Positions 2,339-14,199 of a stretch of 14,199 nt of DNA are shown here, piece after piece. The notes under the pieces are model-generated. The model was given only the letters and a program-made list of their open reading frames with translations, had not been told where the DNA came from and made no database searches. Location: positions 1 to 14,199 of the forward strand of contig JAYVCD010000127.1 in the NCBI GenBank assembly GCA_043750125.1, in the 5' to 3' direction. Made by a program: the position numbers and the translations under genes. Numbering within the stretch: position 1 is the stretch's first letter; every line of letters begins with the position of its first letter. Source of the DNA: Archangiaceae bacterium. Lineage in GTDB: Bacteria > Myxococcota > Myxococcia > Myxococcales > Myxococcaceae.

Positions 2339-4597
2339 CTACTTGTGGTTGTTGAGCGGACCCCCAACGCCGGGCATCGAGCTCACTTCGACCTCGAGTG
2401 TCCCGGCGTTGTCGTCGAGCCCGTCGTCGGGAAGGGTCACCCAGAACGAGCTCGCTCCGGTCATTCGAATCGTCTTTCCCACTTCCAGAATGCGCTGAAG
2501 CTCGTTGGCAGATTTTTTGGCCTGGGCCCCCGAGCTCGGGCCGGGCTCGATCTTCAGCAGCAGCTTACGCACCAGGCCCCCTTTGTCTCCCAGGGTGCGC
2601 GCGCCCGGCAGACCGTCCTTCAACTTCACCTCGTAGGTCTTCAGCGGCTCGAGCCGGTGCACGGTGAAGCGGCGGGTCGGCTCGGGCGCGAACGAGTTGC
2701 TCTTCCCGTCGACCAGCACCGTCGAGGTCGCGTGGCTCGCTACATCCATCACCCGCACCTTGATCGACCCGGCGTTGTCATTGGAAAGCTCGTCGGTCAC
2801 GAAGGCGTAGAGGGCCGTCGCGTTCTTCACCACCGTGCCCTTCGCGCCCACCAGACCAAACGAGTCTCTCGAGGCCAGAGCGGGTGCTCCCTCGAGGAAA
2901 TAGATGCACTCCCCGACCGACAGGTTGTCGGAAGTTCCTCCAAACGACAGCTTTCCTTCCGTCCACACCCGGTAGGTCCTTTTGGGGTCGAGCCGCAGTC
3001 GCGCGGCCTTCGACGGCGGCACCAGAAAAGCGTGCTTGCTGGCCGTCACGGTGAAACCCGCAACCGGGTAGTCCGCCTCGATCGGCAGCGAGGGCAGCAA
3101 GGAAATCACCCCCGCGTCGAACGGCTCTTCCTCGAGCAGAGTGTTGGGCAGCCGATCGGGCTCGAGCTCGGCGTGCATCGCCAACATTCCCCCGCGCTCG
3201 GGAGCCACGTTCTGAATCCACCGCTTCATTCCCGGAGCCGAGACCTCGACCTCGTGGGCCTGGTCCGCCGCCAGGTCCGTCAACAGCAGCGGAGTCGTCT
3301 GAACATGGGCCCGCCCGTCGACCCGGACCCACGCACCGGTCGGTGACGAGGACAGCTGAATCGAAAACGTGGACCAGCGCCCCCACGCCAGCACCCCGAT
3401 GCCCGTCAACAGCGCCGCCACGATGGGAATCGCGGTGAACAACAGGGGCCGCAACCACCCCGGATGATCCGCGCGGAAGTGGGCCCCGGTCGAAGGGTGC
3501 TCGCGTTCTTCGTCTTCCACCCCGATCAGCGGCTTCGATTTCCGCGCCCCCGATCGGACGAACCGGGTCTCCTCGGCCGCGGCCGGGGGTTCAATCGCCG
3601 GCATCGCGCCCTTCCACACCGAGACCTGGTCCAGAAACTCGCGCGGCAGCTGCACCGGCTTGCCCTCGGCCACCAGCTCTTCCTCGAACAGCAGGCCCAT
3701 GAACATCCCCAGGCCGCTGGGCGCGAACGTCGGAACGTTCTGGTTCAAGTACGCCGAGAGCGCCTGCTGAAAGTCTTCCGCCGTCTGGTACCGGTCGGCC
3801 TTCTCGTGGGCCATCGCCGTCAAGATGATTCGCTCGAGCACGGGGCTCAAGCCGGGGTTCAACTCTCGAGGCGGGGGAAATTCTCCGCGGACGATCTTCG
3901 AGAGGACCTCGATCATCTTTCCCTGGAAGGGCAGCTGCCCGCAGAGCATTTCGTACATCACGATTCCCGCCGCGAAGACGTCGGTGCGCGCGTCCAGCTC
4001 TTTGCCTCGGGCCTGCTCGGGCGCGAAGTAGGTGTACTTGCCCTTCACGGCGCCGGCTTCGGTTTCTTCCCGCCCCGCGGTTCGGGCCTTGGAAATTCCG
4101 AAGTCGACGATCTTTATCTGCCCCTCGTAGGCGATGAGGATGTTCTGGGGCGACACGTCCCGGTGCACGATCTTCAGCGGCCGCCCGTCCTCATCGAGCC
4201 GGGTGTGGGCGTAGTGAAAGCCCTTCAGCATCTCGATTCCGATCAGCACCGCGAACGGGGTCGGCATCACAGCGATTTCGAGCGTTCGCGCGCGCTTCAA
4301 CACTTTCGAAAGCGGTTGCCCGTCGACGAACTCCATCGCGAGGAACCAGTCGCCATCGATCTCTCCGAAGTCGAAGACCTGGGCGATGTTTCCATGCGAC
4401 AGGCCCATCGCGATCTTCGCTTCATTGGTGAACATCGCGATGAACGCTTTGTTCGCTGCGTAGTGCGGAAGGATCCGTTTGATCACGACCTGCTTGGTGA
4501 CGCCCGGTGCTGGAGAGAAGCGGGCCTTGAAGATCTCGGCCATGCCCCCGGCAGCGATCCGCGCCTGAAGCTCATACTTGCCGAACGGTTCTGCCAA
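2339..4597 (-). CDS. Membrane-spanning Hanks-type Ser/Thr protein kinase with PEGA domain and duplicated extracellular C-terminal domain
   Basis: Intact kinase motifs AGGMAEIF, VIKRI, HRDVSPQN, DFG, APE and DVFAAG. TM helix LLFTAIPIVAALLTGIGVLAW. PEGA-like 'SSSPTGAWVRVDG...TTPL'. TTG start. Confidence 0.95.
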   Translation of the reverse strand: MAEPFGKYELQARIAAGGMAEIFKARFSPAPGVTKQVVIKRILPHYAANKAFIAMFTNEAKIAMGLSHGNIAQVFDFGEIDGDWFLAMEFVDGQPLSKVLKRARTLEIAVMPTPFAVLIGIEMLKGFHYAHTRLDEDGRPLKIVHRDVSPQNILIAYEGQIKIVDFGISKARTAGREETEAGAVKGKYTYFAPEQARGKELDARTDVFAAGIVMYEMLCGQLPFQGKMIEVLSKIVRGEFPPPRELNPGLSPVLERIILTAMAHEKADRYQTAEDFQQALSAYLNQNVPTFAPSGLGMFMGLLFEEELVAEGKPVQLPREFLDQVSVWKGAMPAIEPPAAAEETRFVRSGARKSKPLIGVEDEEREHPSTGAHFRADHPGWLRPLLFTAIPIVAALLTGIGVLAWGRWSTFSIQLSSSPTGAWVRVDGRAHVQTTPLLLTDLAADQAHEVEVSAPGMKRWIQNVAPERGGMLAMHAELEPDRLPNTLLEEEPFDAGVISLLPSLPIEADYPVAGFTVTASKHAFLVPPSKAARLRLDPKRTYRVWTEGKLSFGGTSDNLSVGECIYFLEGAPALASRDSFGLVGAKGTVVKNATALYAFVTDELSNDNAGSIKVRVMDVASHATSTVLVDGKSNSFAPEPTRRFTVHRLEPLKTYEVKLKDGLPGARTLGDKGGLVRKLLLKIEPGPSSGAQAKKSANELQRILEVGKTIRMTGASSFWVTLPDDGLDDNAGTLEVEVSSMPGVGGPLNNHK

Positions 4598-5335: not shown

Positions 5336-6283
5336 ATGCGACATCTGCTCACCGCGCTTCTCGCATTTCCCGCGCTCGCCGCGGCCTCGGGCGCAGTCGT
5401 CCTCTTTCCTGCGATTGGCAGCCTCGAGAAGGTGACGCTCACCGGCCGGGTCTTCAAGGAAGAGGCGACCTCCGGCAGCTCGACTCTCAGCATGAACCTG
5501 CGGCGGTTGATGGCCAGCAACTGGGAAGCCGCTCCGGTCGAGGTGCGCTACGCCGGAATGTCGAAAAACGTCGTGTCCGGCCACGACGGAAACTTCGAAG
5601 CCGTGTTCGAAGCGATTGCCCCCAGGGTCTTCGCGGTCGGAAGTCAGCGCGCTGAAGCCCGAGTCGGCGAAGCAAAGAGCGGGCTCGCAGTGATCGAAAT
5701 TCTCGCGCCCGCTGCTCCGTTTTTCGTCGTCTCTGATTTCGACGACACCGTCGCGGTGAGCGAAGTCCTCAGCCGCCACAAGCTGCTCGCCAATTCTCTG
5801 CTCAAAGACGAGGCGACCCAGGCGGCCGTTCCCGGAATGGCTGCGTTCTATGGCTGTCTGCGCGAGAACCCGGGCAAGCCTTCCTTCGCCCTGGTCAGCG
5901 GCTCGCCCCAGCAGTTCGCCGGCCGCATCGGCACCTTTCTGCTCAACAACCGGTTTCCCCCGATGGGGCTGTACCTGCGCGATCTGGGGCCCGGCACCCT
6001 CAGCGGCTACAAGCAGCCGATGATTCGCGGGCTGTTGCGGGGGCTGCCGAACAAGGCGGTGTTCATTGGAGACTCAGGCGAGCACGACCCCGAGGTCTAT
6101 CGTCAGATGACGGAAGAGTTTCCCGCCCGGGTCCTGCGCACCTACATTCGCAACGCCGGGCATGCCGAAGATCCGACCCGCTTCATCGGGCAGATGTTGT
6201 TCGAAGAGCCGAAGCAGGCCGCGCTCGACGCGGTCGGACAGGGGCTGGCGAGCACGGCGTGCGTCGCCCGGGCGTTCCCATGA
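5336..6283 (+). CDS. App1-family (DUF2183) HAD-like phosphatidate phosphatase with signal peptide
   Basis: VVSDFDDTV (DxDxT), 'VPGMAAFY', 'LVSGSP', 'FPPMGLYLRD' and 'FIGDSGEHDPEVY' match the App1 catalytic domain motifs. N-terminus MRHLLTALLAFPALAAA is signal-like. Confidence 0.88.
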   Translation: MRHLLTALLAFPALAAASGAVVLFPAIGSLEKVTLTGRVFKEEATSGSSTLSMNLRRLMASNWEAAPVEVRYAGMSKNVVSGHDGNFEAVFEAIAPRVFAVGSQRAEARVGEAKSGLAVIEILAPAAPFFVVSDFDDTVAVSEVLSRHKLLANSLLKDEATQAAVPGMAAFYGCLRENPGKPSFALVSGSPQQFAGRIGTFLLNNRFPPMGLYLRDLGPGTLSGYKQPMIRGLLRGLPNKAVFIGDSGEHDPEVYRQMTEEFPARVLRTYIRNAGHAEDPTRFIGQMLFEEPKQAALDAVGQGLASTACVARAFP

Positions 6284-7463: not shown

Positions 7464-8189
7464 TCAGGGCATCCGTGAGACGGCGTCCATTCCGAAGCTG
7501 ATCTTCGCCTTCCAGGGCGGCGGGGGCAGGCCCCGAAACATCAAGATCCGCTCGAGTCGTTCGATGGTGTCGGCACGCAGCTTTCCAAACGCGACGCCGA
7601 ACCCGGGGTTCATCAAGCGCGCCCGATCTTTGGGCGGGGTCATCACCCAGACGATCTCTCCGTGCAGGGCGAGCACCCCGAGCGACAGCGTCAGCTCGAG
7701 GAATACGGGCTCGCTGACCTTCACGCAGCGAGGCACGTCGGTCGCTTCGATTTCGATTCCCAGCCCGCCGAACGAAACGTCTCGCACCAGGTAGGCGATC
7801 GAGTTCGCCTTGTCTTCGGTCGCCCTCAGCTGCAGCGGAATCCGCGCGTGCTTTCGGACCTTCTCGAACTGCTGGGCTTCGAAGATGCGCCGCAGCAGCG
7901 CGTCCAACCCTTCGCGGTTGTCCGGCTGGTGGTAGCGGATGTTGAGCAGGAACATGCTTCCCGACTGCGGCGAAACGCTCACCACTTCCCCATGCACCTC
8001 GACGACATCGGGGACTCCCTTCGCCTGCAGCTCGAAGATGAAGCGCGTCCCGACTGGAGCCATCTTCCGACTGGCGATCGCGACTCCGCCCTTGCCGACG
8101 CTTCGGGTGAATTCGGAAATCAGCGCGACTGGCGTTTTGTAGGTGACCTTCAACCGAACCGGCTCACCTTTGGCAACTTTCCCGCTCAC
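7464..8189 (-). CDS. Tandem PilZ-domain protein (TIGR02266-like N-terminal domain plus canonical PilZ)
   Basis: The C-terminal domain has RKHAR (RxxxR), DVSFGG (DxSxxG), GEIVW and GFGVAF. The N-terminal domain has a PilZ-like layout with degenerate motifs. Confidence 0.88.
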   Translation of the reverse strand: MSGKVAKGEPVRLKVTYKTPVALISEFTRSVGKGGVAIASRKMAPVGTRFIFELQAKGVPDVVEVHGEVVSVSPQSGSMFLLNIRYHQPDNREGLDALLRRIFEAQQFEKVRKHARIPLQLRATEDKANSIAYLVRDVSFGGLGIEIEATDVPRCVKVSEPVFLELTLSLGVLALHGEIVWVMTPPKDRARLMNPGFGVAFGKLRADTIERLERILMFRGLPPPPWKAKISFGMDAVSRMP

Positions 8190-9039: not shown

Positions 9040-9083
9040 GTGGTAAGAAGTGGTATTTTGCGGATCAGAGTGCTGCGCAGGGG
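9040..9083 (+). promoter_or_regulatory. MraZ operator: GTGG-like boxes with 10-bp periodicity
   Basis: GTGG 9040, GTGG 9050, GCGG 9060, GTGC 9070, GGGG 9080. MraZ is known to bind 10-bp-spaced GTGG/TGGG-type repeats upstream of its own gene. Confidence 0.85.
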
Positions 9084-9100
9084 CATGGCCGAGGCAAAGA

Positions 9101-9553
9101 GTGTTCAGGGGAGTATTCGAGCACCAGATCGACGGGAAAGGACGCACCAGCTTCCCGGCGAAGCTGCGCGAGACGCTCGTCGGCACCTACGACGAGCGGC
9201 TGATCGTCACCACCGCGCTCGATTCCTGTCTCCACGCGTACCCGGTTCGGGAATGGGAACAGCTCGAGCTGGCGCTCTCTCGCCGCAATCCGATGGAACC
9301 GGGCGTCAAGCAGTTGATGCGGCTCTACGTGGCGAGCGCTCAAGAGTGCCCGCTGGACAAGCTGGGGCGAATCTTGATTCCGCCGACGCTGCGCAACCAC
9401 GCCGCGCTGGAGAAAGACGTGATCTGGGCAGGGATGGTGAAGGTCGTCGAGCTCTGGTCGAAGGAAGGCTGGGCCAGAGCGCAGGAAGAGGCCCGGACCG
9501 AAGCGGGATCCGCCGATGTGATGCGCGTTCTGACCGAGCTCAAGCAGTCCTGA
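9101..9553 (+). CDS. mraZ: dcw cluster transcriptional repressor MraZ
   Basis: GTG 9101 (GAGG upstream) gives [15 protein letters not shown]. The second repeat reads [10 protein letters not shown]...GM...VELW. First gene of the dcw cluster. Confidence 0.97.
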
Positions 9554-9597: not shown

Positions 9598-9984
9598 ATG
9601 ACCGAGCTGGCTGCACTCGAGCTGTCGCAAATCGAAGTTGTCCACCCCCGCGCGGCGCAGATGACGATCGCGCTCGAAGGTGAGATCGGCATTCGGGAAT
9701 ACGACGAGATCGCCGGCCAGCTGTTTCGCTTCAGCAGCCGCGGAGTGCGCCGGGTGGTGATCGACTTCAGCGACGTGAGCCACGTCGATTACCGGGTGGT
9801 GCGGCCGCTGATGCTGCGCGCCTCGGGCCTTCGCCACCTCGGTGGAGACGTGAAGCTGTGCGGAATGTCGCCCTACATTCACGCGATCTTCCGGTCGGCC
9901 GGCGCCAACGAGGCGTTCGACTACTACGCGGAAGCGGTCGATGCCGTCGCCGCGTTCGAGCGCCCCGTCCTTACTGTCGGCTGA
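9598..9984 (+). CDS. STAS-domain (anti-sigma-factor antagonist-like) protein
   Basis: RBS GAGAGGA. Motifs 'IALEGEI', 'VVIDFSDVSHVD', 'GGDVKLCGMSPYIHAIF' and 'EAVDAV' follow the SpoIIAA/RsbV fold pattern. Confidence 0.9.
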   Translation: MTELAALELSQIEVVHPRAAQMTIALEGEIGIREYDEIAGQLFRFSSRGVRRVVIDFSDVSHVDYRVVRPLMLRASGLRHLGGDVKLCGMSPYIHAIFRSAGANEAFDYYAEAVDAVAAFERPVLTVG

Positions 9985-9988
9985 CGTT

Positions 9989-10933
9989 TTGGCCTTTTCC
10001 CACCAGACCGTTCTTCTCACCCAGACGGTGCGGCTACTCAAACCCGGAGCAGGCAGGTTGATCGTCGATGGAACTCTTGGAGCCGGAGGCCACAGCCAGG
10101 CGCTGCTGGAAGCGGGCGCGTCTGTGCTCGGCATCGATCGCGACCCTCGCGCGCTGGCGGCCGCCCGCGAACGGCTCGCCCCCTTCGGCGAACGATTTCG
10201 CGCAGTGCAGGGAGACTTCGGGGCGGTGGCTCAGATGATCGACGCCCCGGTCGATGGGCTGTTGCTGGACCTGGGCGTCAGCTCGCCCCAGTTCGACGAG
10301 CCGTCGCGCGGCTTCTCTTTTCAGGCCGACGGCCCGCTGGACATGCGCATGGGCGATGAAGGGCTCACCGCCGCCGAGCTGATCGAGTCGCTCGAAGAGC
10401 AAGAGCTCGCGGCGGTGATTTTCGAGTTCGGCGAAGAACGCTTCTCGCGGCAGATCGCGCGGGCGCTGAAGTTCACCTTGCCGCAGACCACGCTCGCCGC
10501 GGTGAAGGCGATCGAAGGCGCGGTGCCCCGCCGCTCGTGGCCCGAGAAGATTCACGTCGCCACCCGCACGTTTCAGGCGCTGCGCATCAAGGTGAACGAA
10601 GAGCTGGGTCAGCTGGACGACGCCCTGAAGGCACTGCCCCAGGTGCTCGAGCCGGGCGGGGTGGCAGCGATCATCTCGTTTCACTCGCTCGAAGATCGCA
10701 AGGTCAAGCAGGCCTTCAAGGCGCTCTGCGGCGATGTTCCCGATGATCTTCCCCGGGGGCTGCCGATGATCCCGGTGAAGGTCGACGCGGCATTCGAGGC
10801 GCTGACGAAGAAGCCGATCATCGCCGACGACGAAGAGGTCGTTTCGAACCCCCGCGCGCGCTCGGCCAAGCTGCGCGCGATTCAGAAGGTCGGGGGCTCC
10901 CCTGCGCCCTCGGAAGAAGAGCGCGAATCATGA
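9989..10933 (+). CDS. rsmH: 16S rRNA m4C1402 methyltransferase RsmH
   Basis: Motifs HQTVLL, DGTLGAGGHS, DLGVSSPQFD, RGFSF, PLDMRM, TFQALRI.VN.EL, ISFHSLEDR and NPRARSAKLR. Start placed at TTG 9989, 4 nt after the STAS stop; the exact start is uncertain. Confidence 0.97.
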   Translation: MAFSHQTVLLTQTVRLLKPGAGRLIVDGTLGAGGHSQALLEAGASVLGIDRDPRALAAARERLAPFGERFRAVQGDFGAVAQMIDAPVDGLLLDLGVSSPQFDEPSRGFSFQADGPLDMRMGDEGLTAAELIESLEEQELAAVIFEFGEERFSRQIARALKFTLPQTTLAAVKAIEGAVPRRSWPEKIHVATRTFQALRIKVNEELGQLDDALKALPQVLEPGGVAAIISFHSLEDRKVKQAFKALCGDVPDDLPRGLPMIPVKVDAAFEALTKKPIIADDEEVVSNPRARSAKLRAIQKVGGSPAPSEEERES

Positions 10934-11247
10934 GCATCGCAATCGAAGGCCGCCGTGGCGTTTCGTTCGGAGTCATCTTCTTCGAGCTGCTGCCCGCCGC
11001 GCTGCTGGTGGTGATGTTTGCCACCGTCGGCATCGTGCACGTCACCGGCCGGGTGCTGGTGGTGAAGGTCGGCTACGAGCTGTCCCGCCTCGATCAGTCG
11101 GGCTCAGAATTGATGCGCGAACACGATCGCCTCAAGCTCGAGCTGGCCACGCTGCGGTCGCCGGCACGGCTCGAGTCGATCGCGCGCCAGAAGCTGCAGA
11201 TGGGGCCCCCGGCTCCGTCGGCCATTCTTCACGTCAAGGAAATCTAA
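10930..11247 (+). CDS. ftsL: Cell division protein FtsL
   Basis: Lies between rsmH and ftsI with an ATGA overlap. Single TM helix, coiled coil and 'L.LE.ATL.SP.RLE..AR.KL.M' signature. Confidence 0.92.
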   Translation: MSIAIEGRRGVSFGVIFFELLPAALLVVMFATVGIVHVTGRVLVVKVGYELSRLDQSGSELMREHDRLKLELATLRSPARLESIARQKLQMGPPAPSAILHVKEI

Positions 11248-11254
11248 GGAAGCC

Positions 11255-13258
11255 GTGCGCGACCTCAAGCACACCGCGTCGATGGAAGCCCCCACCCGGT
11301 GGATGCGGCTGCGCGTCTTCGTGATGGGCGCGGTGTTCATCGTTCTGCTGGTGGCGGTCGTGGCCCGCGCTTTTCAGCTGCAAGTTCACCAGCAGGCGAT
11401 GCTCAAGGGAATGGCGCAGGATCAATACGTGCGCCAGGTCGAGATTCCCGCTCGCCGCGGTGACATCTTCGATCGCCGGGGTGTTCCTCTGGCGCAGAGC
11501 GTCGACGTCGATTCGATCTGGGTCGACCCTTCGCTGTTGCTCGACCAGAAGTTTGCTTCCAAAGCACTGGCCCGGGCGCTCGAGCTCGAGCCGTCCGAGT
11601 TGCTGGCCCGTCTGGCCAAGGCGCGCCGGTTTGCCTGGATCAAACGGCAGGTGACCCCCACCGAGGTCGCGAAGGTCACTGCGCTCGCCTTGCCCGGCAT
11701 CGGCTTCACCAAGGAGCCCCGCCGCTTCTACCCCCAGCGCGAATTGGGCGCCCACGTGCTCGGCCTGGTCGGCACCGACGGTCATGGCCTCGATGGCCTC
11801 GAGCTGGCGTTCGAATCCGAGCTGTCCGGCGACGCGTCGACCCAGCGGGGCTTTCGCGACGCGCGCGGCCGAAAGCTGCTGACCCACGGGGTCGAAGAAC
11901 CCACCGGTCGCCAGGGCGCGGCAGTGACTCTCACCCTCGATCGCCACCTGCAGTACATCGCCGAGAAGGCGCTGACCCGCGCAGTCGAAGACGCCAAGGC
12001 CCCTGCGGGCACCGTGGTGGTCCTCGACCCGAAGAGCGGCGAAATCCTCGCGCTCGCCAACTACCCCCGCTTCAACCCCAACTCTCCGGCCACTGCATCG
12101 AAGAACGCGCTTCGAAACCGCGCCGCGACCGACGCCTTCGAGCCGGGCTCGACCTTCAAGGCGTTCGTCGTCGCCGCCGCCCTTGAGGAAAAGCTCGTCA
12201 ACGAGTCGACGACCTTCAATTGCGAGAAGGGCGCCTGGAAGGTCGGGAAGCACGTCATCAACGACACCCACCCGCACGAGTCGCTCGACGTGCAGCACAT
12301 TCTGCAGGTCAGCTCGAACATCGGAGCGGCGAAGATCGGCGCCGCGCTGGGTCGAGATCGGCTGGTCGACTACTACGCGAAGTTCGGGTTCGGCGAACGG
12401 GTCGGCCTGGGGCTTCCGGGGGAAGGCAAAGGGGTGGTGCCCTTTCCGCGCGCCGAAGTCTCGCTCGCGACCGAGTCGTTCGGTCAGGGGCTCACCGCCA
12501 CCGCGATTCAGATCGCCGCGGGCTATGGGGCCATCGCCAACGGGGGGGTGCTGATGAAACCGTACCTGGTGCAGAAAGTCGTCGATCCGGACGGGGTCGT
12601 CTTGATCGACAATCAGGCCACCGAGGTTCGCCGTGTCATCTCTGCTGCGAATGCGCGGCGGGTGGTTTCGATGCTCGAAAGCGTGGTCGAAAAAGAAGGC
12701 ACGGCGCCCAGGGCGCGCATGGACGAGTACCGCGTTGCGGGCAAGACCGGCACGGCTCAGAAGGTCGACCCCGTCGCACGCGGCTACTCAGACAAGCGCA
12801 TCGCGTCGTTCGTGGGCATGGTCCCGGCCGAAAATCCGCGGCTGGTCGTCCTGGTGGTAATCGACGAACCGAAGACCGATGTCTACGGAGGAATCATCGC
12901 CGCACCCGCATTTAAAGAGATCGCCACCGCCGCGATGCCGTATCTGTCGGTCAAGGCGTCTCGTCCGCCGACTCCGGAAAAACCGGGAAAGGTTGCAGTT
13001 CAAAAAGTGGTGCTCAATCCGCCTGTCGTTGCGGCGATTGAAGAGCTCGATGTCCCTGACGGTGCGGTCCGGGTGCCCAATCTCACCGGGCGAGCAGGGC
13101 GGGAAGCAGTTGCACAGCTGTTGGCCGTTGCCCTCGAACCGCGGCTTGCTGGCAGCGGTCGGGTGTCGTCGCAACAACCGGCGGCTGGAAGTCTCGTTGA
13201 AAGAGGAACTCGCGTGACACTGGAACTGGCAGGACCCTTGCCAACTACACCTCAATAA
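11255..13258 (+). CDS. ftsI: Class B penicillin-binding protein FtsI (PBP3) with C-terminal PASTA domain
   Basis: N-terminal TM helix, RGDIFDRRG, RRFYP, G..GLE. Catalytic motifs EPGSTFK (SxxK), SSN and KTGTAQ. PASTA-like 'VPNLTG...G.V..Q.P.AG..V'. Confidence 0.96.
   Translation: MRDLKHTASMEAPTRWMRLRVFVMGAVFIVLLVAVVARAFQLQVHQQAMLKGMAQDQYVRQVEIPARRGDIFDRRGVPLAQSVDVDSIWVDPSLLLDQKFASKALARALELEPSELLARLAKARRFAWIKRQVTPTEVAKVTALALPGIGFTKEPRRFYPQRELGAHVLGLVGTDGHGLDGLELAFESELSGDASTQRGFRDARGRKLLTHGVEEPTGRQGAAVTLTLDRHLQYIAEKALTRAVEDAKAPAGTVVVLDPKSGEILALANYPRFNPNSPATASKNALRNRAATDAFEPGSTFKAFVVAAALEEKLVNESTTFNCEKGAWKVGKHVINDTHPHESLDVQHILQVSSNIGAAKIGAALGRDRLVDYYAKFGFGERVGLGLPGEGKGVVPFPRAEVSLATESFGQGLTATAIQIAAGYGAIANGGVLMKPYLVQKVVDPDGVVLIDNQATEVRRVISAANARRVVSMLESVVEKEGTAPRARMDEYRVAGKTGTAQKVDPVARGYSDKRIASFVGMVPAENPRLVVLVVIDEPKTDVYGGIIAAPAFKEIATAAMPYLSVKASRPPTPEKPGKVAVQKVVLNPPVVAAIEELDVPDGAVRVPNLTGRAGREAVAQLLAVALEPRLAGSGRVSSQQPAAGSLVERGTRVTLELAGPLPTTPQ
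13227..13241 (+). promoter_or_regulatory. Candidate internal sigma54 promoter upstream of murE
   Basis: TGGCAGGACCCTTGC matches TGGCACG-N4-TTGC at 10 of 11 positions with exact spacing. It ends 50 nt before the murE ATG. Confidence 0.55.
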
Positions 13259-13290
13259 ACGCCGCCACCGCGCGGCTGGGAAGACACATC

Positions 13291-14199
13291 ATGAAGCTCA
13301 ACGAGCTCCTCGCAGGCGTCGGTACCGAGCCTCCCGCAGCACCGAAGCACAAGGGTGAGATTACCGGGCTGTGCAACGACTCGCGCCAGGTGAAAGCCGG
13401 CGACCTGTTCATTGCATTGCCGGGCGCCAAATCAGACGGTTCTCTGTTCGCAGCCGAGGCGGTCAGCCGCGGCGCACTGGCAGTGGTCTCCGAGCGCGAA
13501 GTCCCCGAGGTGAAGGTCCCCGTCTTTCGGGTCACTTCGGCCCGAAAGGCGCTCGCGCTGATCGCCGCCAACTTCTACAAGAAGCCCGCCGACGAGCTGA
13601 CCTTGCTGGGAATCACCGGCACCAACGGGAAGACAACCACCGCCTGGTTGCTCGAATCGATCTGCGCCGCAGGTGGAGCGTCGACGGCGCTGCTGGGGAC
13701 CATCGTCAATCGCTGGGGCGGGCACATCGAGCCAGTCACCCACACCACTCCGGATCCAATCGTGCTCCACCGGATGTTCCGCGAAATGCTCGACTCGGGC
13801 GTCGACACGGTGGTGATGGAAGTCTCGAGCCACGCGCTGGCTCAGTACCGGGTTCACGGGCTGACCTTCAAGGGAGCCGCGTTCACCAACCTCTCGCGCG
13901 ATCACCTCGACTACCACAAGGACATGGAAGAGTACTTCCAGGCCAAGCGCCGCCTGTTCACCGACAACCTCTCGGCCAGCGGCGTGGGCGTCGTCAACGG
14001 CGATGACACCTACGCGGTGCGGTTGTCGAATGAGCTGCGCGGCGCCAAGCGCCTGGCGTGGAAGTTTTCGCGGCTGGGCAACGGGGAGATCTCGTCGGCG
14101 AACATCGAGATGACGAGCAGTGGAATCAAAGGCACGCTGAAGACTCCGGCCGGCGACATTCCGCTCAAGTCCTCGTTGGTCGGAACCCACAACCTGGAC
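13291..14199 (+). CDS. murE: UDP-N-acetylmuramoyl-tripeptide synthetase MurE (3'-truncated by the window; absent from the ORF track)
   Basis: Manual translation from ATG 13291 gives MKLNELL...NDSRQV..GDLFIAL.G, GITGTNGKTT, HTTPDP, MEVSSHAL, FTNLSRDHLDYH and YFQAKRRLF. Confidence 0.96.
   Translation, partial: MKLNELLAGVGTEPPAAPKHKGEITGLCNDSRQVKAGDLFIALPGAKSDGSLFAAEAVSRGALAVVSEREVPEVKVPVFRVTSARKALALIAANFYKKPADELTLLGITGTNGKTTTAWLLESICAAGGASTALLGTIVNRWGGHIEPVTHTTPDPIVLHRMFREMLDSGVDTVVMEVSSHALAQYRVHGLTFKGAAFTNLSRDHLDYHKDMEEYFQAKRRLFTDNLSASGVGVVNGDDTYAVRLSNELRGAKRLAWKFSRLGNGEISSANIEMTSSGIKGTLKTPAGDIPLKSSLVGTHNLD

Follow-up and report, generated by a model that had tools for sequence, protein, structure and literature searches.

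The element at the end of ftsI

The window analyzed here is the whole 14,199-bp contig C127 from the genome of an Archangiaceae bacterium (assembly of 6.17 Mb in 460 contigs, 65% GC, 89% complete). Comparison with named relatives puts this genome in the Myxococcaceae, and its closest records are metagenome-assembled genomes with the labels Archangiaceae, Myxococcaceae, or Myxococcales. Its + strand carries the head of the division and cell wall (dcw) cluster, with mraZ, a STAS gene, rsmH, ftsL, ftsI, and the 5' part of murE (Table 1). Written into the last codons of ftsI, ahead of murE, is the element TGGCAGGACCCTTGC, at positions 13227 to 13241 on the + strand, which resembles the −24/−12 elements of sigma54 promoters. 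An earlier interpretation made from the letters of the window (the sequence-only reading) had proposed that a sigma54 promoter at this place drives murE and the dcw genes behind it. Nucleotide-level constraint across many genera, as described below, makes it almost certain that the element is functional, probably in a control role.

The dinucleotides GG (13228-13229) and GC (13240-13241) are separated by exactly 10 nt, as sigma54 promoters require. Ten of the 11 letters of the consensus TGGCACG-N4-TTGC are present, the sole mismatch being G for C at position 6, and nowhere else in the window does a sequence come as close as one mismatch to that consensus. The motif occupies codons L658-A-G-P-L-P663 of the 667 codons of ftsI, and the C of the GC lies 49 nt from the murE ATG. 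With the usual sigma54 geometry, a transcription start would fall near 13253 and leave a 38-nt leader on murE. The position of the element with its GG and GC, the single mismatch, and the geometry of the predicted start are just as the sequence-only reading had described them. The reverse strand of the motif (13229-13243, − strand) reads TGGCAAGGGTCCTGC, with two mismatches to the sigma54 consensus, because the element is nearly palindromic; it may be an antisense sigma54 site.

Conservation in the ftsI tail of relatives

The ftsI-murE junction was compared across the Myxococcaceae in a set of 97 loci with 76 distinct junctions, taken from 30 relatives, named records, and 60 further family genomes. 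Among the 208 family genomes, 204 gave a murE match, and the 60 are a nonrandom selection from these (the 40 most similar and 20 distributed over other genera). The pattern TGGC[A/C][A/G]G-N4-[T/C]TGC is kept in the ftsI tail in 37 of the 76 distinct junctions, and the conservation at the nucleotide level spans about 11 genera. Per-position and codon counts refer to 35 of the motif-bearing sequences, which were analyzed in detail. All 35 relatives show T1, G2, G3, C4, G7, T13, G14, and C15, and 34 of them show A5 and T12. Motif positions not specified by the consensus vary freely, and position 17 is A in 18, C in 15, and G in 2 sequences. The encoded peptide is L-A-[G/S]-x-L-P, in which x is P, A, Q, N, T, G, H, or R.

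The distance from the GC to the murE ATG is 47 to 52 nt in 31 of the 35 relatives; two others have 59 to 60 nt, and the last two have 25 and 15 nt, respectively. The lineage with the shortest distance, G154, keeps the motif at 15 nt from the ATG. The lineage with a distance of 25 nt, G141, carries TGGCAGGTCAGCTGCA, with the consensus A after the GC and with CTGC. The motif is lost in one genus, in which ftsI ends with LAGNAP* and overlaps murE by ATGA, and also in a few single genomes.

Codon use in the same region separates the constraint on the nucleotides from the constraint on the peptide. Synonymous changes were counted by parsimony (Fitch) in an alignment of the last ∼135 ftsI codons, on a tree from which the motif codons had been left out (11 substitutions per site in total), for the 37 columns with a residue common to at least 30 of the 35 sequences. 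The Ala128 codon is GCA in 34 sequences and GCC in one, and the Leu131 codon is TTG in 34 and CTG in one, with one synonymous change each. Leu127 shows 10 changes, which only exchange CTG and TTG and leave the TG of the motif constant. The 34 other conserved-residue columns show 2 to 20 synonymous changes, with 4 to 20 for the other 4- to 6-fold codons. The third position of the Gly codon, in the spacer of the motif, accounts for nine changes, and the third position of the Pro codon, past the motif, accounts for seven. Elsewhere in the ftsI tail, Ala and Leu columns freely use GCC, GCG, GCT, and GCA and CTC, CTG, CTT, and TTG, respectively. Synonymous sites are frozen only at the letters that the motif specifies, and these letters are thus selected as nucleotides. 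The sequence-only reading had suggested examining whether GG-N10-GC is conserved as nucleotides independently of the encoded residues, and the frozen GCA and TTG codons across about 11 genera answer this in its favor. The element is also a clean case in which codon choice at a gene end has been restricted by a regulatory signal over long evolutionary time.

The spacer element of sister genera

Among the 39 junctions without the ftsI motif, 21 contain GG-N10-GC with TGC[A/G] at 19 to 28 nt ahead of the murE ATG, and the ftsI tail in these junctions reads ...LELA[T/A]RQ*. Carriers of this spacer element include Pyxidicoccus fallax, Archangium metagenome-assembled genomes, and a large genus that has its spacer in common with Myxococcus xanthus AM003. 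The element of M. xanthus AM003, aGGccccgctcTTGCA, lies 21 nt ahead of the murE ATG (L179, positions 154-168) and is a candidate sigma54 promoter in this species. A record titled Comamonas sp. KCTC 72670 contains the exact Myxococcus-type ftsI-murE spacer together with the murE start; this record is probably mislabeled or contaminated.

The sister-clade alignment, anchored on the TGCA-like box only, comprises 26 sequences and about 22 genera. Of the 26 sequences, 24 and 25 have the first and the second G, respectively, and 23 to 26 have the letters of TTGCA, and the columns around the GG are variable. The spacer elements are unable to form the hairpin discussed below for the ftsI motif, and RNAalifold finds no consensus structure in them (16 sequences, −0.37 kcal/mol, no compensatory pair). 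A hairpin occluding the Shine-Dalgarno (SD) sequence in sister genera was considered and rejected: it occurs in some single folds and is absent from the RNAalifold consensus. Position 11 is C or T in 21 of the 26 spacer elements, where no pairing partner exists, and the preference for a pyrimidine may therefore be a property of the element itself rather than of a stem. In the 450-nt regions of all 76 junctions, there are 68 sense-strand copies of the core GG-N8-TTGC, 55 of them at 0 to 59 nt upstream of murE, and 14 antisense copies. Outgroup families of the same order show a good match in only 1 of 10 junctions, the intergenic CGGCAGGGCGGTTGCA, 53 nt ahead of the murE ATG (G020).

A proposed internal sigma54 promoter and its alternatives

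The favored interpretation, with roughly even chances, takes the element for an internal promoter of the sigma54 type that serves murE and the dcw genes behind it. RNA polymerase with sigma54 would bind the element in the last ftsI codons, and some enhancer-binding protein (EBP), when active, would trigger a start near 13253. The resulting mRNA would consist of the leader of ∼38 nt, murE, and probably the downstream dcw genes, and this internal transcript would add to read-through from the mraZ promoter. This interpretation draws on the 10 matching consensus letters with the exact GG-N10-GC spacing and on the fixation of the specified letters in the 35 relatives, with synonymous sites frozen only there. 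It is also supported by the GG-N10-GC element without a hairpin at the ftsI-murE junction of sister genera and by the concentration of the GG-N8-TTGC core just upstream of murE on the sense strand. A TTGC −12 box is favored over a plain stem because T12 is kept even though the commoner synonymous codon CTG would strengthen a hairpin. The genome contains the equipment that the sequence-only reading expected, with rpoN on contig C457 (Sigma54_DBD, 2e-63) and about 41 EBP matches with an E value of <1e-40 among the 50 Sigma54_activat matches listed, and intragenic sigma54 promoters are reported to be common in M. xanthus. No EBP gene is present in the 14,199-bp window, and no sigma70-like promoter was found at the junction.

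RNA evidence comes from one metatranscriptome run (0.06 share), the single RNA run among 14 runs found, in the form of assembled contigs, which cannot show transcription starts. A 182-nt contig from this library corresponds to 13135-13316 with six differences and is thus assigned to a relative. The contig fits read-through at the ftsI-murE junction; DNA in the library is also possible. A search of the + strand between 12900 and 13500 for a GC-rich stem followed by a T-run gave no intrinsic terminator. The sequence-only reading had further suggested that the dcw cluster may be split into two units, one from mraZ to ftsI and one beginning with murE. With no terminator between ftsI and murE and one contig bridging the junction, this split is unsupported, and the element would at most be an additional internal promoter.

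Several observations weigh against a sigma54 promoter. Position 6 is G in 32 relatives and A in 3 and is never the consensus C, although an Arg codon (CGN) would allow C. Position 16 is C in 34 of the 35 relatives and A in 1, and position 11 is C or T in 30 of 35 and G once, whereas the confident sigma54 sites of this genome favor G (30 of 52). The letter after the GC in the window is C at 13242, part of a Pro codon, instead of the A or T of TTGCW. T follows the GC in 17 of the 23 intergenic one-mismatch sites of the genome, and the M. xanthus sites in Table 1 of PMC9765219 show T, A, or G at this place and never C. The motif at 15 nt from the ATG in one relative leaves no space for a leader bearing an SD sequence. 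A conserved upstream activator site was not seen, with no further frozen-synonymous block among the 37 columns of the last ∼135 ftsI codons. The RNA-library contig runs across the predicted start and carries no information on an internal start. The spacer element of the sister genera has a weak −24 half (nGG[C/T][C/T]) and would give murE a leader as short as ∼10 nt; single-sequence folds of some genera also show that the C-run behind the GG can pair with the SD sequence. The proposal of the sequence-only reading is thus strengthened by the conservation of the element but weakened by positions 6 and 16, which deviate in nearly all relatives, and by a hairpin that explains the same conservation.

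Scoring within the genome adds further points on this side. A weight matrix for sigma54 sites was self-trained from consensus seeds under control of the false discovery rate and yielded 52 confident intergenic sites with the consensus TGGCACG-nnnG-TTGCTC; a first iterative training, which drifted from 59 to 271 sites, was dropped. The ftsI site scores 4.2 bits, compared to at least 15 bits for the confident sites, and 5,415 of the 118,417 GG-N10-GC sites score at least 4.2 bits. At this score there is no intergenic enrichment (ratio of 1.16). The low score is a weak negative because the matrix is self-trained and would reject TTGCA as well. In the window, 0.40 one-mismatch matches are expected, and at least one match occurs in 75 of 200 shuffles. 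With GG and GC kept, the whole genome contains no exact and 50 one-mismatch sites, compared to expectations of 4.4 and 111 under independent, identically distributed (iid) letters. Of the 50 sites, 23 are intergenic, while intergenic sequence, as defined by crude gene calls, makes up 17% of the genome; this class of sites carries signal. Scans with two mismatches gave 7 sites in the window (6.03 expected) and 8 sites in the dcw cluster of a genus-mate (8.45 expected). By the statistics of the single genome, the site is indistinguishable from the chance match in GC-rich DNA that the sequence-only reading had allowed for; conservation in the relatives lifts the site above chance.

The main alternative, possible if rather unlikely, is that the conserved object is an RNA stem-loop, 5'-GGCARG-NNN-YUUGCC-3', of 6 bp (sometimes 7 to 8 bp) at the ftsI-murE boundary of the polycistronic dcw transcript. 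Such a hairpin would affect how the mRNA is processed, how stable it is, or how translation of murE is coupled to ftsI, and the likeness to sigma54 sites would arise as a by-product, given that the sigma54 consensus is close to palindromic. Applied to 31 of the 35 sequences (two short-distance and two near-duplicate sequences were left out), RNAalifold returns the GGCARG-NNN-YUUGCC hairpin as the consensus structure. In this alignment 97.8% of 186 cells pair, compared to 31 to 57% when the partner is slid by one to three columns. At pair 6-12, 28 sequences have G-U and 3 have A-U, and pair 7-11 is G-C in 21, G-U in 7, and unpaired in 3. All six pairs are formed in 29 of the 35 relatives, compared to 7 of 53 confident sigma54 sites of the genome; the palindrome in this clade goes beyond what a promoter requires. 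The hairpin thus accounts for R6, Y11, and C16, letters that are deviant or free in the sigma54 consensus. It is present in the minimum free energy (MFE) and centroid folds of 13200-13310, and the 20-nt hairpin segments fold at −5.0 to −10.7 kcal/mol. The persistence of the motif at 15 nt from the murE ATG in one lineage, the RNA-library contig spanning the site, and a second conserved inverted repeat behind the ftsI stop also speak for an RNA structure. On the other hand, none of the six pairs shows compensatory changes; three never vary and two vary one-sidedly, giving no covariation support, and the invariance of the pairs is evidence neither for nor against structure. T12 is kept in 34 of 35 relatives even though C would be the better partner for G6 and CTG is used more often, the outer pair 1-17 is not maintained, and sister genera retain GG-N10-TTGCA at the same junction without a hairpin; the promoter interpretation explains all three features. 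The 111-nt region folds no better than shuffled sequences (z of −0.98), and Rfam gave no match at E values up to 1 in 12900-13600. Promoter and hairpin could both be real. A true hairpin would mark a conserved posttranscriptional control point between ftsI and murE.

A decidedly unlikely explanation makes the imperfect palindrome GGCARG-N3-CYTGCC an operator, bound by a dimeric regulator distinct from sigma54 that would modulate transcription across ftsI-murE. The half-sites GGCAGG and GGCAAR on opposite strands and the near-consensus reverse strand display the required symmetry. Direct binding control of dcw genes by the NtrC family is described for NtrX of Rhodobacter sphaeroides (PMC7240162). 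The palindromic pattern occurs only twice in the genome, compared to 6.3 expected occurrences, and therefore points to no regulon; a repeated element is ruled out by the same count. The half-sites are, moreover, unequally conserved, with a variable position 17, no myxobacterial regulator motif is known to match the palindrome, and the sister-clade element is not palindromic. Most improbable of all is a chance match without function, in which conservation would reflect shared descent, the constrained peptide L-A-G-x-L-P, and local codon usage. The nonsignificant statistics of the single window, the genome-wide number of one-mismatch sites below the iid expectation, the general richness of the ftsI tail in A/T-ending codons, the relatedness of the sequences, and the nonrandom sampling of junctions would agree with it. 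This reading nonetheless appears largely refuted already by the codon data, in which the two motif codons have one synonymous change each, compared to 4 to 20 in other 4- to 6-fold codons and 7 to 10 at the neighboring free sites within the motif. Codon rarity would equally permit GCT, TTA, CTT, and CTA, none of which ever occurs, and sister clades carry an analogous element at a nonhomologous place.

Genomic context of the element

The features of the window are collected in Table 1.

Table 1. Features of the 14,199-bp window in order of position
Feature	Position	Strand	Evidence or remark
Ser/Thr kinase with PEGA domain	2339-4597	−	upstream of the dcw cluster
APP1-type phosphatidate phosphatase	5336-6283	+	upstream of the dcw cluster
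PilZ-domain protein	7464-8189	−	upstream of the dcw cluster
mraZ, head of dcw cluster	9050-9553	+	Pfam MraZ, 6.2e-28
STAS-domain gene	9598-9984	+	128 codons; profile match
rsmH	9941-10933	+	profile match
ftsL	10930-11247	+	profile match
ftsI, class B penicillin-binding protein (PBP)	11255-13258	+	667 codons; TAA stop at 13256-13258; Pfam PBP_dimer, Transpeptidase, PASTA
PASTA domain of FtsI (residues 605-659)	13069-13231	+	Pfam, 1.2e-10
Sigma54-like −24/−12 element, TGGCAGG-ACCC-TTGC	13227-13241	+	10/11 consensus letters, then C instead of T/A
Inverted repeat GGCAGG/CTTGCC with 3-nt loop, overlapping the sigma54-like element	13228-13242	+	RNAalifold; MFE and centroid folds
Predicted sigma54 transcription start, ∼12 nt past the GC	13252-13254	+	from usual sigma54 geometry
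Inverted repeat GCCGC-N6-GCGGC just past the ftsI stop	13261-13276	+	without a T-run behind
SD-like GGGAAG, 7 nt ahead of the murE ATG	13278-13283	+	
murE, 5' part	13291-14199	+	303 codons, runs off the contig; Mur_ligase, Mur_ligase_M

As the sequence-only reading had assumed, mraZ stands at the head of the cluster. The STAS gene, which is anti-sigma-antagonist-like, lies between mraZ and rsmH and overlaps the start of rsmH by 44 nt, an unusual insertion in the dcw head. FtsI has a PASTA domain at its C terminus, a feature better known from Gram-positive PBP2x-type proteins, and the sigma54-like motif begins in the last two codons of this domain. Behind the ftsI stop, the GCGG block of the second inverted repeat and the adjoining GGAAGACAC show little or no variation among 31 relatives; GGAAGACAC forms the conserved block around the SD region of murE. 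Sister genera possess a stem CGCGGC/GCCGCG with the ftsI stop codon in the loop. The further course of the cluster can be read from a genus-mate (94% MurE identity), in which murE is followed on the same strand by murF-mraY-murD-ftsW-murG-murC-murB-ddl-ftsQ-ftsA-ftsZ.

Comparison with known systems

An intragenic sigma54 promoter in a myxobacterium is of a kind already known. In M. xanthus, sigma54 promoters are reported to be frequent within operons or within the coding region of the preceding gene, the figures being 74 of 83 putative promoters of polyketide (PK) and nonribosomal peptide (NRP) genes, three of the four characterized ones, and 9 of 12 Nla28 targets (PMC7910581, PMC9765219). The ftsI-murE element shares with them the location of the −24/−12 region in the 3' part of the preceding gene or in an operon and the role of an internal promoter that it would have. 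Of the 12 sites in Table 1 of PMC9765219, 9 are further from the consensus than the ftsI site, and the remaining 3, those of actB, MXAN5040, and MXAN7147, match it equally well, with one mismatch each. The M. xanthus promoters are backed by mutation of the −24/−12 region and by EBP binding, whereas the ftsI-murE element is known here from sequence. None of the listed M. xanthus sigma54 promoters lies in the dcw cluster. The supplements of PMC9765219 contain no entry for murE, ftsI, mraY, a PBP, or another dcw gene, and those of PMC12316311 contain none for COG0769, COG0768, or COG0472. No prior report of a sigma54 element at ftsI-murE was found in open-access papers and bioRxiv.

Widespread intragenic sigma54 sites are also described for Escherichia coli and Salmonella (references 64 and 65 in PMC7910581). 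As in the present case, these sites lie inside genes, and some are conserved and some drive downstream genes. Many of the E. coli and Salmonella sites have been reported as nonproductive or antisense. The ftsI element differs from them in its orientation and distance, which fit the next gene, and in its demonstrated conservation at the codon level. A developmental sigma input to cell wall genes exists in the dcw cluster of Bacillus subtilis, where spoVD and spoVE have sigma-E promoters. That case differs in the sigma family and promoter type and concerns sporulation paralogues rather than murE itself. The NtrC-family regulator NtrX directly controls the dcw operons of R. sphaeroides, including murE, and alters peptidoglycan precursor levels; it binds upstream of mraZ and ddlA and not at ftsI-murE, and the account in PMC7240162 describes no −24/−12 promoter for this control. 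The E. coli-type promoter Pmra resembles the present cluster in that mraZ stands at the head, and read-through from a promoter there is therefore expected to reach murE. Pmra is, however, a sigma70 promoter with MraZ repeats at the cluster head, and the ftsI element is internal and of another type.

Significance for the Myxococcaceae

Deletion of rpoN is stated to be lethal only in M. xanthus (PMC12316311), and the reason for this essentiality is a question standing since 1997 (cited in PMC12316311). A broader form of the sigma54 interpretation, unlikely as it stands, would make an enhancer-dependent sigma54 promoter at ftsI-murE an old trait of the whole family, located in the ftsI codons in one large clade and, in Myxococcus, Archangium, and related genera, in the spacer ∼21 nt ahead of murE. 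Such a promoter would provide a signal-controlled input to the peptidoglycan precursor and division genes from murE to ftsZ and would help to explain why M. xanthus does not tolerate the loss of rpoN. The link to development and to the essentiality of rpoN, which the sequence-only reading also drew, is speculation. The model species M. xanthus has the spacer version of the element and is covered by genome-wide Cappable-seq start data (E-MTAB-11042, PMC8844925), which makes the question accessible to a test there. If the sigma54-type element is true, it would offer a concrete candidate answer to the question of rpoN essentiality, directly upstream of essential cell wall genes. What makes the element noteworthy is its place in the dcw cluster, the depth of its conservation, and the bearing that it may have on the essentiality of rpoN.

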